From an uncultured Thermoanaerobaculia bacterium (GTDB lineage: Bacteria; Acidobacteriota; Thermoanaerobaculia; Thermoanaerobaculales; Sulfomarinibacteraceae), in the NCBI GenBank assembly GCA_964423595.1, contig CAYRFI010000011.1, positions 15,826 to 63,345 of the forward strand: DNA of 47,520 bases, in the 5' to 3' direction. Under the pieces are notes generated by a model. That model was not told the origin of the DNA and did no database searches. It saw nothing but the letters and a program-made list of their open reading frames with translations. This document shows, piece by piece, positions 22,064-26,594 of this stretch (position 1 is the stretch's first letter; the number at the start of each line of letters is the position of its first letter). Made by a program: the position numbers and the translations under genes.

Positions 22064-23029
22064 CTATCGGTTATCAGCTTTCGATGGAGGTATTCGAAGT
22101 AGGAGCGTTCGTGTCTCTCCCGGCGGTGGTAAGGGATCATGTATCACGCCGGTGACAGCGTTGTCAGCCACCAGCCACAGCGATCCGTCGCCGCTGACGG
22201 CAATCCCTTCGACGTTGTTGGACCACCCCTCCCTTGCAAGAACTCTAAGGAGCCTCGTTGGATTCAGCAGCACCACGGTGTCTCCGGTCTCGAGGTCGAC
22301 AGTCACGACCTCGTACCGCATGCCCGGGAATTGGGTCCTGAGGGCGATAAGCCCTCCTTCCCACCAGGCGAGCCCCGTCAATCGCCAGGTGCAGTCCTCG
22401 AGCTGCACGTCGATTGGATCGCCGTCGGAGAGGAGGGCGCCATCGGTCCGCTGGAGGTCCCAGATCCTCGACACGCAGCCGGTTTCCTCGGTGCCGCTCC
22501 GCTCGAGTAGGAGGTAGACCGTGCCGTCCTCAGGATTGACCTCGATCCCTTCGAAGCCGGTTTTCCCGCCGTGAACGTCGACTCCTTCGAGAGTGAGGGT
22601 TTCAGCCGGCAGCGCGTGTGCCGGCGGGGACTCGAAGACCTGTTGTTCGTTATCGATCCGCACCTCGTAAACCGCCGCGTGAGCCTCATCACACAGCAAC
22701 ACCCCCCCAGCGAACAGCGCCACTCCTTCGAGTTCCGCGTGTTGCGGCACGCCGACTCGGACAGTCTTTACATACGGGCGTCCCTGTAGGTCGATGAGGA
22801 GAAGACCTCCGTACTTTTCGGAAGACAACCAGAGGAATCGAGCCGAGGCCGCCAATCCCGATGCCTCGATGGCGAATTCCTGGGCAAAGTAGGGTTCGTC
22901 TGCATGCCACCGGACCACCTCGGCCCGGGCGATGTTCCAGGGGGGAGTCGTCTTTGGTTTTGAGGCGGTGGCCGACCGGCAGCCAGCGGCCGATGCCAGG
23001 AGCAGAAACAGAATGGTCCAGCGTCTCAT
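22064..23029 (-). CDS. Putative lipoprotein, beta-propeller (phytase-like esterase / SdiA-regulated type)
   Basis: Signal peptide with AAGC; repeated [28 protein letters not shown] blade motifs; ATGA overlap with mtnA. Confidence 0.7.
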
Positions 23030-24120
23030 CGGACTCGTTCCGGGAACAATGTAGCAAGTCCCTCGGCGGACGCATCGCAGAGCCCGCGTTCGGTGATCAG
23101 CCCGGTCACCAACCGCGCTGGCGTGACATCGAAGGCCCAGTTGCCTGCAGGACAACCCGGGGGAGCAACCTCAATCGATATCACCTCACCCTCGAACGTC
23201 CGACCGGACACTCGGGTGAGCTCCTCAGGAGGGCGTTCCTCGATAGGAATCTCGGCGATGCCGTCGCGCGCCGTCCAATCCACAGTGGTCGACGGGAGGC
23301 AGACGAAAAACGGCACCTGGTTGTCTCGGGCCGCGAGCGCCTTGAGATAGGTCCCGATCTTGTTGGCGACGTCACCTGCGGCAGTAGTCCGATCGGTGCC
23401 CACCAGGCACAGATCCACCATCCCGTGTTGCATGAGATGTCCGCCCGCGTTGTCCGCGATCAGAGTGTACGGCACACCGTGCGCGGCCAGCTCGTAGGCC
23501 GTGAGGGCGGCACCCTGATTGCGCGGTCGGGTCTCGTCGACCCACACGTGCACCGCCATCTTGGAGTCGTGCGCCATGTAAATCGGTGCCAGCGCGGTCC
23601 CCCAGTCGACCGTGGCCAGCCAGCCGGCGTTGCAGTGCGTCAAGATGTTGACGCTTTCTCCGCCTTTTCGGCTGGAGATCTCTTGCAGCTTGAGGAGCCC
23701 TTGCTCACCGATACGTCGGCAGATCTCGACGTCGTCGTTGCAGATGCGCGCCGCGCAGGTCCAGGCCGCGTCCGCCCTCTCGCGCTCCGGGAGCGGTGTT
23801 ACCTCTCGCGCCATCTCATCGAGAGCCCACCGCAGGTTGACTGCTGTCGGACGGGTGGCAGCGAGCATCTCCCGAGACGCTTCAAATGCATCGTCCGAGG
23901 CATCTGCGCGCAACGCGAGAGCCAACCCGTAGGCGGCGGTGGCGCCGATCAAGGGCGCTCCCCTGACTCGCATGGTCCGTATCGCCTCCGCGGCGTCCTC
24001 CACGGAATCCAACCTGCGGACTTCAAAGAAATGGGGCAATAGAGTCTGGTCGATGATCTCGACAGCCAGCCCATCTTCGGTCGGCCATATCGTCCGGTAC
24101 CAGGTATCGCCGATTCGCAT
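23026..24120 (-). CDS. mtnA: S-methyl-5-thioribose-1-phosphate isomerase
   Basis: [55 protein letters not shown]. Confidence 0.95.
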
Positions 24121-24192: not shown

Positions 24193-24291
24193 AACGGCTT
24201 ACGGCTCGACGGCTATGCGGCCGTGGACGGGTGGGCGGGGGAACCCGTATAGCCGTAGGGCCGCGTGCGGGTGGGCGGGTGGGCGGGTGGG
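24193..24291. repeat. 8-mer-period cassette plus G3-tract array
   Basis: acggctt acggctcg acggctat gcggccgt ... ccgtatagccgt ... GGGTGGGCGGGTGGGCGGGTGGG. Confidence 0.65.
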
Positions 24292-24356
24292 ATCGGCACG
24301 CGTATACTGCTCCGGCGCGCAAATGAGCACATGGCGCGCCCATGAAAGGAGGGTTC

Positions 24357-25688
24357 ATGTCACGAAAATCGACAATTCTGACCCTGGTCGTCCTCGTCGG
24401 TCTCGCCGGCGCCTGCGCAAAGCAGGAGCAGGCGAGCCCCGCGGAGGAGGCATGGTCCGCGCTGGTCGAGGAATGGAGTGGGCTGGAGACGGCTCAGGAG
24501 AAGACGACACTTGCCGAGAACTATCTTGCGGAGTTTCCCGACACCGAACACAGCGGATCGATGGCGGGGGTGGTGGTCTACTACCGCGGCCACGAGATGG
24601 AGGATCCCCAGGGTGCCTACGACGTGGTCGCCTCGACCCTCGAACACGTCGAGGACCCCGAGCAGCGATTCGAAGTGAGCATGGAACTGTTCAGCCTGGC
24701 GGACTCCGTGGAGGTACCGCTCGAGTTGGCGCAGGTGGCCAACAGTCTCAGTGCGCACCGGCCACTTACATACTCCGAACATCAGCAGGTATTCGAGACG
24801 GCCGTCGATCTCGAAGAGTGGATGGTGGCTGACGAACATGCCCTCGCGGCGCTGGACATGGCCACCCCCGAGGCCTATCGAGCCGACTACCCCGATCGTG
24901 AGTTTACCGACGAGGACGTCGCCGAGCGCGTTCAAACCCGCAAGGCCGCAGCGCTCGCTTACGACGGGTGGGCGCTCTACAACATGGGTGACACCGAGCT
25001 GGCGTTCGCGCGCTTCGCCGCAGCCGACGAAGTTGGAAGCGTGAGCTTCGTCGGAGTTCCAAACACTCCGCTTTACACGTTCTGGGGCCGTGCATGGCTG
25101 GCTGAGGGAGACGTCGACTCGGCGATCGAGAAGCTCGGCGCCGAAGCGGCGTTCGGCAGTGACGGTTCAGGTGCCGAGGTCTATCTTCGCGAGGCCTATG
25201 CGGCCAAGAATGGCGACGAAGAAGGCTTTGACGAGTTCCTTTGGGCCACCCGCAATCGGCTCGCCACCACGGTCGCCGACTTCACGCTCCTCGACTACGA
25301 GGGAAACACAGTCAGGATGGCGGATGTGAGCACCGGAAAGGTGACATTGCTCGCCTTCTGGTTCCCCACGTGAGGCGGCTGCCGCGTGGAGTTGCCACGC
25401 CTGCAACCGTTGTATGAGCAGTACAAAGACCAGGGCTTCGAGGTCATTGCCGTCGAGGCCAAACGAGACACCGAACGCGCAAAGAAGTTCATCGAAGAAA
25501 AAGGCCTCACATACACGATGCTCGAAAACGCCGAGGACGACGAAGAAATTGTCGGTTCGATCTTCAAGGTTCGTTCCTTCCCGTCGTCATTCCTGATTGA
25601 TCGTGACGGCAAAGTGATGTACTTCCATCTCGGATTCGAAGCCGGCGATGAAGAGCATCTCGAGGACGAGATCAAGACTCTGCTGTAG
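24357..25688 (+). CDS. Lipoprotein selenoprotein: TPR-like helical region plus TlpA/AhpC-TSA thioredoxin-like domain with UxxC (UGA 25371-25373 read as Sec)
   Basis: ORFs 24342-25373 and 25386-25688 are in one frame. The joined text is ...DFTLLDYEG...GKVTLLAFWFPT-U-GG-C-RVELPRLQ...FPSSFLIDRDGKV, a complete TlpA domain. SD AGGAGG precedes ATG 24357; LAGAC lipobox-like motif. Confidence 0.85.
25374..25408 (+). promoter_or_regulatory. Putative bacterial SECIS element
   Basis: Stem gcgtgg(25384-25389)/ccacgc(25395-25400) with AGUUG loop starting 16 nt after the UGA; lower pairs tgc/gca. Confidence 0.7.
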
Positions 25689-25715
25689 CTGTAGCAGATT
25701 TCGAATTTGCCCCTG

Positions 25716-25738
25716 CCCGCCCCGGGTGGGGGTTTTTT
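25716..25738 (+). terminator. Probable intrinsic terminator
   Basis: cccgcc-ccg-ggtggg stem followed by gg and T6, just after the redoxin gene. Confidence 0.55.
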
Positions 25739-25778
25739 CGTCCCGGTTATTGGATTGATTCTGCTGACGGCAAATATA

Positions 25779-25966
25779 TTGAAAACGCAAAGACGCCAAG
25801 AGCGCGAAGAAGACGCAAAGGAAATATTTTGAGTTTTTTTTCGCGACAGTCTTTGCGCTCTTCGCGTCTTCGCGGTTCCAACGTGATTGCGGCTCAGGAG
25901 AGCCTTCTACAGAATTTCATTCTTCCGAGACTTCCTAGCCGTCAAGCCGTATGGCCGTATGGCCCC
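25779..25966. repeat. Composite intergenic element, copy 2 (inverted relative to copy 1)
   Basis: ttgaaaacgcaaagacgccaagagcgcgaag ... ctttgcgctcttcgcgtcttcgcggttccaa, followed by spacer and a gccgtcaagccgtatggccgtatggcc array. Confidence 0.8.
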
Positions 25967-25986
25967 TTCCGAGCGATAATCGCCCC

Positions 25987-26409
25987 ATGCTCCGAATCAA
26001 CAACGACCTGTGGATTGACGAGGACGAACTCCGCTTCGAGTTTTCTCGCAGTTCGGGACCGGGGGGGCAGAACGTCAACAAGGTCGAGACTAAGGTCCGC
26101 CTGCTTTTCGATCTTCGAGGGTCCCGCTCCTTGAGTTCGGAGCAGCGTGCACGAATCGAGGAGCGCCTCTCCACCCGCATCACCAAGGGTGGGGTTCTCC
26201 ACGTGTCATCCCAGCGCCACCGCACCCGCGAAGCCAACCGCCGCGCAACCATCGAGCGGTTCGTCGATCTGCTCGCCGAGGCCCTCGAGAAGGAGGAACC
26301 GCGTGTACGCACGAGGGTGCCGAAGGCGGCGAGCAAGCGCCGGTTGGAATCGAAACGGCGGCGGGCGCAGAAGAAGGCGATGCGAGCGCGGCCCGGCGAA
26401 GAGGATTGA
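25987..26409 (+). CDS. arfB: Alternative ribosome rescue peptidyl-tRNA hydrolase ArfB (YaeJ)
   Basis: FSRSSGPGGQNVNKVET, SQRHRT...NR, basic tail RRLESKRRR..KK.MR. Confidence 0.92.
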   Translation: MLRINNDLWIDEDELRFEFSRSSGPGGQNVNKVETKVRLLFDLRGSRSLSSEQRARIEERLSTRITKGGVLHVSSQRHRTREANRRATIERFVDLLAEALEKEEPRVRTRVPKAASKRRLESKRRRAQKKAMRARPGEED

Positions 26410-26447
26410 ACTCGAAGCGTCTTCGCGCCTCTCCCTTCGGCGAGGAA

Positions 26448-26529
26448 GGTGCCACCCTTCACATTGTTTGAATTCATCGCCTCCCAATCGAGTAACGGCT
26501 TCAGGGCAAACAATGTGAAGAGTGGCACC
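26448..26529. repeat. 23-bp inverted repeat with 36-nt spacer
   Basis: ggtgccacccttcacattgtttg (26448-26470) and caaacaatgtgaagagtggcacc (26507-26529): 22 of 23 positions complementary. Confidence 0.85.
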
Positions 26530-26594
26530 AGTGTCAACGACGCAGCAAGGCGCCCATGATAGGCGGTATCCGGGCACGTGCACGGAGACGGGTC

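Follow-up and report, generated by a model that had tools for sequence, protein, structure and literature searches.

A probable selenocysteine-containing lipoprotein with a TPR-like scaffold and a thioredoxin-fold domain in an uncultured Thermoanaerobaculia bacterium

The stretch of DNA analysed here (the window) comprises 47,520 nucleotides of contig CAYRFI010000011.1, from an uncultured Thermoanaerobaculia bacterium of the phylum Acidobacteriota. It harbors a single gene that, in our assessment with high probability, encodes an exported, membrane-anchored redox lipoprotein whose active-site UGA is decoded as selenocysteine (Sec) via SelB and a selenocysteine insertion sequence (SECIS). The gene spans positions 24357-25688 of the forward strand and consists of 443 codons with one in-frame TGA at 25371-25373; the ATG at 24357, this TGA and the TAG at 25686-25688 share one frame. 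The read-through product has 443 residues and carries the active-site stretch LLAFWFPT-U339-G-G-C342-RVELPR. Comparative evidence shows one gene with a conserved UGA, a Sec/Cys pair, a covarying SECIS, the machinery for Sec insertion and both predicted folds, an N-terminal scaffold resembling tetratricopeptide repeats (TPR) and a C-terminal thioredoxin fold (Table 1).

Translation table 11 divides the gene into a 343-aa open reading frame (ORF, 24342-25373), which opens at an upstream ATG at 24342, and a 100-aa ORF (25386-25688), which opens at a GTG at 25386. An earlier note on this DNA had described two same-frame ORFs parted only by the TGA and had expected standard annotation to split the gene; its coordinates, the residue numbers U339 and C342 and the motif are correct, and the split is what table 11 gives. 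The computational checks that it proposed all favor its interpretation, which is supported. The start is placed at ATG 24357 rather than at ATG 24342 because of the spacing of the AGGAGG, and orthologue N-termini likewise begin M-S/F/L-R-K/R. The only Cys or Sec residues of the mature protein are C20, U339 and C342.

The in-frame TGA is widely conserved. A six-frame search covered 40 relatives, 24 genomes of the same genus and 16 from a second family of the same order. A full-length match with exactly one TGA is present in 21 of the 24 same-genus genomes, at 59-75% identity. Genome G007 keeps the TGA and the downstream part, with the gene split between two frames near residue 308, G011 has fragments only, at a contig end, and the search found no orthologue in G006, which is 66% complete. 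In the second family, full-length matches, each containing one TGA, come from 3 of the 16 genomes, at 37-39% identity. When the genus loci are excised, the TGA lies at the aligned codon (338-342) in 20 of 20, and in each the frame stays open for 104 further codons up to the real stop; five further loci, three of them from the other family at 37-39% identity, are alike, which brings the total to 25 of 25. Among the genus orthologues the downstream protein is highly conserved and the residues on both sides of the TGA are invariant. Across the phylum, an even set of 401 genomes was sampled at E<=1e-25: 28 genomes match, with 33 match rows, of which 31 contain one TGA at identities down to ~25%; the remaining two are a fragment lying after the site and a Cys form. 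Contigs of the independent DNA runs X4 and X5 also extend across the TGA, and no difference is listed for them there. The TGA could instead be confined to one genome, as a nonsense mutation, the lesion of a pseudogene or an artefact of sequencing or assembly; the earlier note had named a strain-specific nonsense change or sequencing error as refuting its reading. An explanation of this kind would agree with the behavior of gene callers, which stop at the TGA: all of the 120 database matches listed end at or before residue 338 and cover at most 76% of the query. However, the TGA is not strain-specific, because it is conserved across genus, order and phylum, down to the most distant of these members; the frame behind it is open and conserved as protein, and the independent runs agree. 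The comparison across genomes refutes an error or lesion of this kind, to which we assign next to no probability.

The homologues in databases divide into truncated records and proteins with Cys at the site. An exhaustive HMMER search of 1.84 billion representatives was made, and the best 150 matches, which are 50%-identity cluster representatives, were sorted by their ends and CxxC motifs. Among these, 102 stop exactly one residue before the Sec position, ending in [F/A/L]-W-x-P-T (95 records) or W-x-P-G (7 records); judging by these ends, they are gene calls cut at the UGA. Nine are full-length two-domain proteins with Cys (CxxC) aligned to U339, in motifs such as WNPA-C-GP-C-RVELP, WFPT-C-GP-C-RVELP and WAHP-C-GS-C, and three are fragments of Cys forms, giving 12 CxxC homologues in all. 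The remaining 36 comprise proteins with several thioredoxin domains, single-domain thioredoxins and N-terminal fragments, and a search for loci with the single protein returned, beyond the first nine, mostly relatives with the thioredoxin domain only. Cys at the UGA position, which the earlier note had proposed to look for, is therefore found in 12 homologues, and for one Cys form (L061) the codon was confirmed in DNA as TGC. An alignment of 40 sequences (A2) has no invariant columns other than U/C339, C342 and P409. In a quick tree built from 37 rows after the removal of three fragments, which is midpoint-rooted and has many long branches, the Cys forms are interspersed among the Sec forms, and well-supported branches force at least two state changes. 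Public records name the family hypothetical or TPR protein.

These data also bear on a two-gene arrangement, in which a 338-aa TPR lipoprotein ends at the TGA and the thioredoxin part is made separately from GTG 25386 or not at all. Table 11 does yield two ORFs, and each failure of Sec insertion probably yields a truncated product. Nevertheless, the domain starts near residue 304, so that neither its first strands nor any of the U/CxxC site would be encoded by the 100-aa ORF, which would also be without a signal peptide. The Cys homologues are continuous two-domain proteins, the TGA is flanked on both sides by invariant residues, and a covarying SECIS (below) lies exactly where SelB needs it. 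Two separate genes are accordingly extremely unlikely.

The predicted SECIS is a hairpin with a 6-bp stem, a 5-nt loop and a folding energy of -9.0 kcal/mol. The 11th nucleotide after the UGA is the first of its stem, and the gap from UGA to loop is exactly 16 nt; the earlier note was right about a downstream AGUUG hairpin, and its 16 nt is the distance to the loop, not to the start of the hairpin. Covariation was assessed on 50 distinct 57-nt segments, comprising 300 stem cells, of which 99.3% are paired. Changes on both sides occur in four of the six pairs (G-C to U-A, C-G to U-A, U-A to A-U or C-G, and G-C to U-A). The covariation score of 0.313 compares with a mean of 0.094 after shuffling; none of 500 shuffles reaches it, and controls with a slid partner score at most 0.111. 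Unaided, RNAalifold returns the identical six pairs. The closing G and the first four loop nucleotides (GAGUU) are invariant in 50 of 50 segments, and in a further family member, at 26% identity, the stem GUGUGG/CCACAC is still paired around the loop AGUAU. Distant members encode REEFPH, RAEFQH, MAELPH or LVELPR at the hairpin, and the stem changes alongside.

Within the genus, the codons CGC GTG GAG TTG CCA CGC CTG (residues 343-349) show almost no synonymous change. Codon heterozygosity is 0.027 over these residues vs. 0.45 in 99 other columns whose amino acid does not vary; five of the seven columns use a single codon, compared with 5 of 99 elsewhere (Fisher p 4.8e-5), and the run has the lowest synonymous variation of 104 sliding runs. 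The hairpin is absent at that place from two Cys controls, a family member with TGC (0.0 kcal/mol) and a single-domain relative with TGT (-0.8 kcal/mol), whereas nine Sec forms folded alongside range from -8.4 to -10.5 kcal/mol. In the accessible text of a 2026 review, the bacterial SECIS (bSECIS) model has a loop of 3-9 nt, an upper stem of 4-16 bp, a UGA-loop distance of 16-37 nt and an MFE (minimum free energy) of at most -7.5 kcal/mol, with a G within the first two loop positions that is usually followed by G or U (PMC13188914). The element of the window lies within all of these published constraints (loop 5, stem 6, A-G-U, 16 nt, -9.0 kcal/mol). The SECIS geometry that the earlier note proposed is thus borne out by a conserved, covarying hairpin that fits the published bacterial model. 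A longer element is possible, with a lower stem around the core, in which the changes TGC to TGT and CAA to CAG keep wobble pairs within the genus. Because its conservation is not seen in distant members, this lower stem is weakly supported.

The machinery for Sec insertion, which the earlier note had suggested searching for, is complete in the genome assembly of the window (95.6% complete), with every component above its curated cut-off. The selB match spans the whole model and scores 343 bits where 242 are required; selA reaches 492 bits (268 required) and selD 374 bits (125 required), and selC is a single tRNA-Sec gene that scores 75.9 bits against a threshold of 47 and that ARAGORN identifies as tRNA-SeC (anticodon TCA). 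Ten weaker tRNA-Sec-like Rfam matches were also returned; the four that were checked are tRNA-Ser genes, two on contig C71 (~2.4 kb from selB) and two on C7. The four sel genes are spread over four different contigs, and the tRNA-Sec gene (L013, G000:C89:1493-1873) lies ~200 nt from a divergent tRNA-Ala(GGC). TGA also serves as an ordinary stop, in four of seven Pfam-supported neighbouring genes and in 3 of 20 orthologues.

The UGA could alternatively be read as an amino acid other than Sec, either as Cys (by Cys-tRNA(Sec) or a near-cognate tRNA), as Trp or through lineage-wide reassignment of the codon. Cys evidently works at this position in homologues, and selenium at U339 is deduced from comparison rather than from chemistry. 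However, the codon is not reassigned, because TGA terminates four of the seven neighbouring genes, and both the complete selA/B/C/D set and a SECIS with the G-U loop signature and the spacing of SelB-dependent elements argue for Sec. Read-through of the non-Sec kind is very unlikely, and the UGA of the active site is very probably read as selenocysteine.

The N-terminus, MSRKSTILTLVVLVGLAGA-C20, has the appearance of a lipoprotein signal, as the earlier note had suggested. A PROSITE-style lipobox rule is satisfied by 19 of 20 genus orthologues, and Cys occurs at position 20 or 21 in 20 of 20; acylation is predicted; the lipobox Cys is absent from some distant family members in alignment A2. 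The following domain, ~283 residues long, has an isoelectric point (pI) of 4.13 (4.27 for the mature protein), in keeping with the acidic helical repeats read from the sequence earlier. Modelled alone by AlphaFold2 from 56 sequences, it forms a stack of 15 helices (predicted local distance difference test, pLDDT, 96.3; predicted template modelling score, pTM, 0.91). The top 50 matches by Foldseek and VIA-align are nearly all TPR or TPR-like helical-repeat proteins. Foldseek ranks 4r7s first (E 5.4e-4), with designed CTPR proteins, LapB and KLC2 next. VIA-align places three-repeat, peptide-binding TPR modules on model residues ~117-270 (Sti1 TPR2B, PP5 and STUB1, Z 13.4-13.7); the Sti1 TPR2B and PP5 alignments reach Z 13.6-13.7 over 118-122 residues, where the tool regards Z < ~13 as possibly generic.

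The C-terminal domain matches two Pfam families over residues 305-436, AhpC-TSA PF00578 at 72.8 bits (cut-off 26) and Redoxin PF08534 at 66.2 bits (cut-off 26.6). The full-length AlphaFold2 model, built from A2, has a mean pLDDT of 93.6 and a pTM of 0.86. In it U339 is followed by a helix (340-359), and the cis-Pro P409 is invariant, as in a thioredoxin fold. Foldseek aligns the domain with Chlorobium DsbE (3gl3) and Bacillus ResA at template modelling (TM) scores (target) of 0.89-0.91 and a root-mean-square deviation (rmsd) of ~2 A. Searched as a whole, the model retrieves thioredoxin-domain matches only, and the same two-domain arrangement is absent among the structures listed; the one longer whole-model alignment, to 4yod, is poor (rmsd 14 A) and was discarded.

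Several observations weigh against this interpretation or narrow it. The 76-nt region 25365-25440 folds no better than shuffled sequences (z 0.22); it is covariation and synonymous constraint, rather than energy, that speak for the hairpin. The RVELP encoded by the hairpin is also retained in several Cys forms; part of the conservation is therefore at the protein level. Amino-acid conservation alone would be insufficient, and it is the synonymous and compensatory patterns, as read from the aligned segments, that prove an RNA element. At the N-terminus, no Pfam TPR model matches at E<=0.1, the domain is without a Pfam or NCBIfam match, and the VIA-align scores (Z 12-13.7) fall in the range that the tool calls possibly generic for helical repeats. 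Because the Pfam TPR models miss and Z is near the generic level, the term TPR-like, introduced by the earlier note, is here a statement on the fold of the model only: the fold lends it support at a level that may be generic, the Pfam TPR models lend it none. Its second label, TlpA-type redoxin, likewise holds for Pfam and fold and fails at the NCBIfam cut-offs, which are missed by ResA NF002854 (83.5 bits vs. 170), TlpA NF047696 (48.7 vs. 230) and WAxxUGC_long NF041054 (47.2 vs. 300); DsbE TIGR00385 (45.4 vs. 123) and StoA also score below theirs. Among the 54 loci compared, the window's own included, no redox partner is conserved beside the gene. The RNA evidence is weak, and expression is a hint, no more. 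Finally, the incorporation of selenium at U339 is predicted from sequence, and the direction of electron flow and the substrate are suggested by analogy.

The mechanism that we propose would start with the SECIS hairpin, whose G-U at loop positions 2-3 would recruit SelB with Sec-tRNA(Sec), so that the UGA at 25371-25373 is translated as Sec. By analogy with the TlpA/ResA/CcmG family, the protein would face the periplasm after export and lipidation, the U339 selenolate would attack a disulfide or other oxidised sulfur of the substrate, and C342 would resolve the mixed selenenylsulfide. The oxidised U-C pair would then be re-reduced by a membrane electron transporter of the DsbD/CcdA type; a membrane domain of this type (DsbD_TM, 171.8 bits) is encoded elsewhere in the genome, at G000:C6:59401-60033. 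The TPR-like domain may, to judge from its fold, select or hold the substrate or a partner. If translation stops at the UGA, for example when selenium is scarce, a 338-residue TPR lipoprotein without the catalytic domain would result. A more far-reaching proposal, which we consider rather unlikely, is that the family, as a periplasmic reductase of sediment Acidobacteriota, depends on Sec almost obligately, with a UGA that may create a selenium-gated two-product locus and a SECIS that may reflect co-adaptation with SelB. Among the 150 best representatives, 102 clusters cut at Sec stand beside 9-12 Cys forms. With selenium, the locus would yield a TPR-guided selenol reductase; without it, a 338-residue lipoprotein that binds the same client and does not reduce it. 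The near-invariant minimal SECIS, with its GAGUU loop context, would have been shaped by the SelB of the lineage.

The gene stands alone, with an mtnA-like gene (23026-24120, other strand) before it and a gene for an ArfB-like peptidyl-tRNA hydrolase with an RF-1 domain (25951-26409, +) after it; Era and a CorC/CBS protein are encoded beyond these neighbours. Of the 54 loci, 20 have the mtnA-like and 21 the ArfB-like neighbour, and all of the loci that share them come from the genus or from one family-level genome. This neighbourhood is plain synteny, with no functional link. A 200-aa ORF on the opposite strand (25935-26537) overlaps the ArfB-like gene; its matches fall at the same loci, as expected of any frame that overlaps. 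In the upstream intergenic region 24200-24300 there are several G-rich GGGTGGGCGGG-like units and two copies of a TA(C/T)AGCCGT... motif, and at 24220-24262 the contigs of other DNA runs end or depart from the window sequence. The terminator-like hairpin after the stop includes, within 25709-25733, a similar CCCGCCCCGGGTGGGGG. The G-rich upstream repeats may mark a small repetitive element or a site of variation.

The records of close relatives are labelled as metagenome-assembled genomes of Candidatus Sulfomarinibacteraceae, Thermoanaerobaculales and Holophagales. The paper naming the Sulfomarinibacteraceae reportedly ties them to seafloor sulfur cycling; in its accessible text the word selenocysteine does not occur. 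Near-identical DNA comes chiefly from metagenome runs of salt marshes; at least half of the sampled words are present in five runs, three of which are possible sources of the window DNA itself. At the RNA level, metatranscriptomic run X12 holds one identical 205-nt contig within the gene, upstream of the UGA, and one contig of a relative that spans the UGA; run X23 holds no contig on the gene.

Some family members have an unusual structure. The split orthologue of G007 (L045, G007:C23:142900-146300) may reflect a frameshift, a fault of assembly or a pseudogene. In G020, a second copy (L044, G020:C5:29200-32500) lies beside the intact one; it has 36-39% identity, is spread over three frames and retains the TGA, and looks like a decaying paralogue. 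Genome G053 has four copies, all with the TGA, arranged as a tandem pair on C49 (L056/L075) and two on C145, and the SECIS stems of these copies differ by compensatory changes. A record labelled Deltaproteobacteria bacterium (L078) contains an orthologue 75% identical to the window protein, and its SECIS is the same. Either this label or the binning is probably mistaken, because the other close relatives are all labelled as Acidobacteriota lineages. Outside the window, the same genome contains another thioredoxin-fold match with one in-frame TGA (G000:C74:21306-21629, -). TGA-bearing thioredoxin-like matches of this kind recur in many relatives, and by sequence they may represent a second UxxC-type selenoprotein family of the lineage.

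Table 1. Positions, in window coordinates, of the elements assigned to the gene and its flanks
Feature	Position	Strand	Details and basis
Shine-Dalgarno AGGAGG	24347..24352	+	4 nt before ATG; direct sequence reading
Predicted signal peptide with lipobox LAGA-C20	24357..24416	+	Cys20 codon 24414-24416; lipobox rule
Acidic all-helical TPR-like solenoid (predicted), aa 21-303	24417..25265	+	AlphaFold2 and structure matches
TlpA/ResA/DsbE-like thioredoxin-fold domain, aa 304-443, UGGC active site	25266..25685	+	Pfam, Foldseek
UGA, very probably read as selenocysteine (U339)	25371..25373	+	Conservation, Cys homologues, independent DNA runs
Possible extended lower stem (CGG/CCG, UGC/GCA round core)	25376..25409	+	MFE and centroid folds
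Putative resolving cysteine C342 (TGC)	25380..25382	+	Invariant in alignment A2
SECIS core hairpin GCGUGG-AGUUG-CCACGC	25384..25400	+	Loop 25390-25394; covariation, RNAalifold, synonymous constraint
True stop codon TAG	25686..25688	+	Direct sequence reading; orthologue loci
Intrinsic-terminator-like hairpin and T-run	25709..25743	+	11 pairs (8 G-C) then TTTTTT; consensus scan, pattern match only

With TlpA, ResA and CcmG (DsbE) the C-terminal domain shares the fold (3gl3, 1st9, 2f9s), the W-x-x-x-C-x-x-C site, the cis-Pro (P409) and the extracytoplasmic tethering to the membrane. In contrast to these proteins, it has Sec for the nucleophilic Cys, an extra TPR-like domain and NCBIfam scores below cut-off, and no cytochrome-maturation or Sco/Cox gene lies beside the gene of the window. 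The NCBIfam family NF041054 ('ResA-like WAxxUGC motif-containing protein') also consists of a TlpA/ResA-like domain carrying Sec. However, its motif is U-G-C, whereas that of the window protein is U-G-G-C (UxxC), and the protein is not a member, because it scores far below the family cut-off. Pneumococcal Etrx2 and SdbA of S. gordonii, whose structures 2yp6 and 5um7 are among the Foldseek matches, are likewise lipid- or membrane-anchored extracytoplasmic TlpA-like domains; unlike the window protein they have Cys instead of Sec and no TPR-like domain, and they belong to another phylum with another, Gram-positive, envelope. Proteins of the CnoX/YbbN type combine a thioredoxin fold with a client-holding TPR domain; they are cytoplasmic, have the opposite domain order and contain no Sec.

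As for the RNA element, the minimal element of E. coli fdhF is a 17-nt upper stem-loop that is required at 11 nt from the UGA. The window hairpin shows what we take to be this same geometry (17 nt, 11 nt from the UGA). In contrast to the bSECIS model and to fdhF, it is very short and nearly invariant in sequence, and a bulged U is not evident. Like the elements of that model, in the form given by the accessible text of the review, it is a small stem-loop in the coding region, with G then U early in the loop, a distance of 16 nt and an energy of -9.0 kcal/mol (PMC13188914).

Because databases cut the family at the Sec codon, the catalytic domain is lost from every functional prediction, and hundreds of records would be put right by a family model that makes an exception for Sec. 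The gene would add an exported, membrane-anchored selenoenzyme to the Candidatus Sulfomarinibacteraceae, Thermoanaerobaculales and Holophagales lineages; in the accessible portions of the literature no description of selenoproteins in these taxa was found, and supplementary tables could list them. The compact, covarying SECIS and the interleaved Cys forms make the family well suited to the question of why a periplasmic reductase retains Sec. The finding would not surprise a specialist and would be useful for annotation.

The nearest known selenoproteins are those of the Prx-like kind, which were reportedly described by Zhang, Gladyshev and co-workers. UxxC selenoproteins with the thioredoxin fold of PF00578 have been catalogued since 2005, and the names in use in the accessible parts of this literature are 'Prx-like', 'Prx-like 1' and 'Prx-like thiol:disulfide oxidoreductase' (PMC1088965, PMC1794560, PMC2398784, PMC13188914). 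No description of a TPR-TlpA lipoprotein selenoprotein was found in the accessible text of the literature, which included PMC13326102, PMC12013277 and PMC1794560; supplementary tables could list one. By the definition given in the accessible text of two of these sources (PF00578 and UxxC), the C-terminal domain is a member of Prx-like 1 (PMC2398784, PMC13188914), a placement made by published definition and not by sequence comparison with reference members such as the Geobacter protein. Like Prx-like 1, as far as the accessible text describes it, the window protein has Cys homologues and a PF00578 domain in which Sec opens the UxxC motif, and its UGA is closely followed by a bacterial SECIS. 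In contrast to it, the domain is here the C-terminal third of a lipoprotein whose N-terminal ~283 residues are TPR-like. It is not a new kind of system: the kind of selenoprotein is well known, and the two-domain family with the fused TPR-like domain is large, unannotated and systematically mis-annotated.

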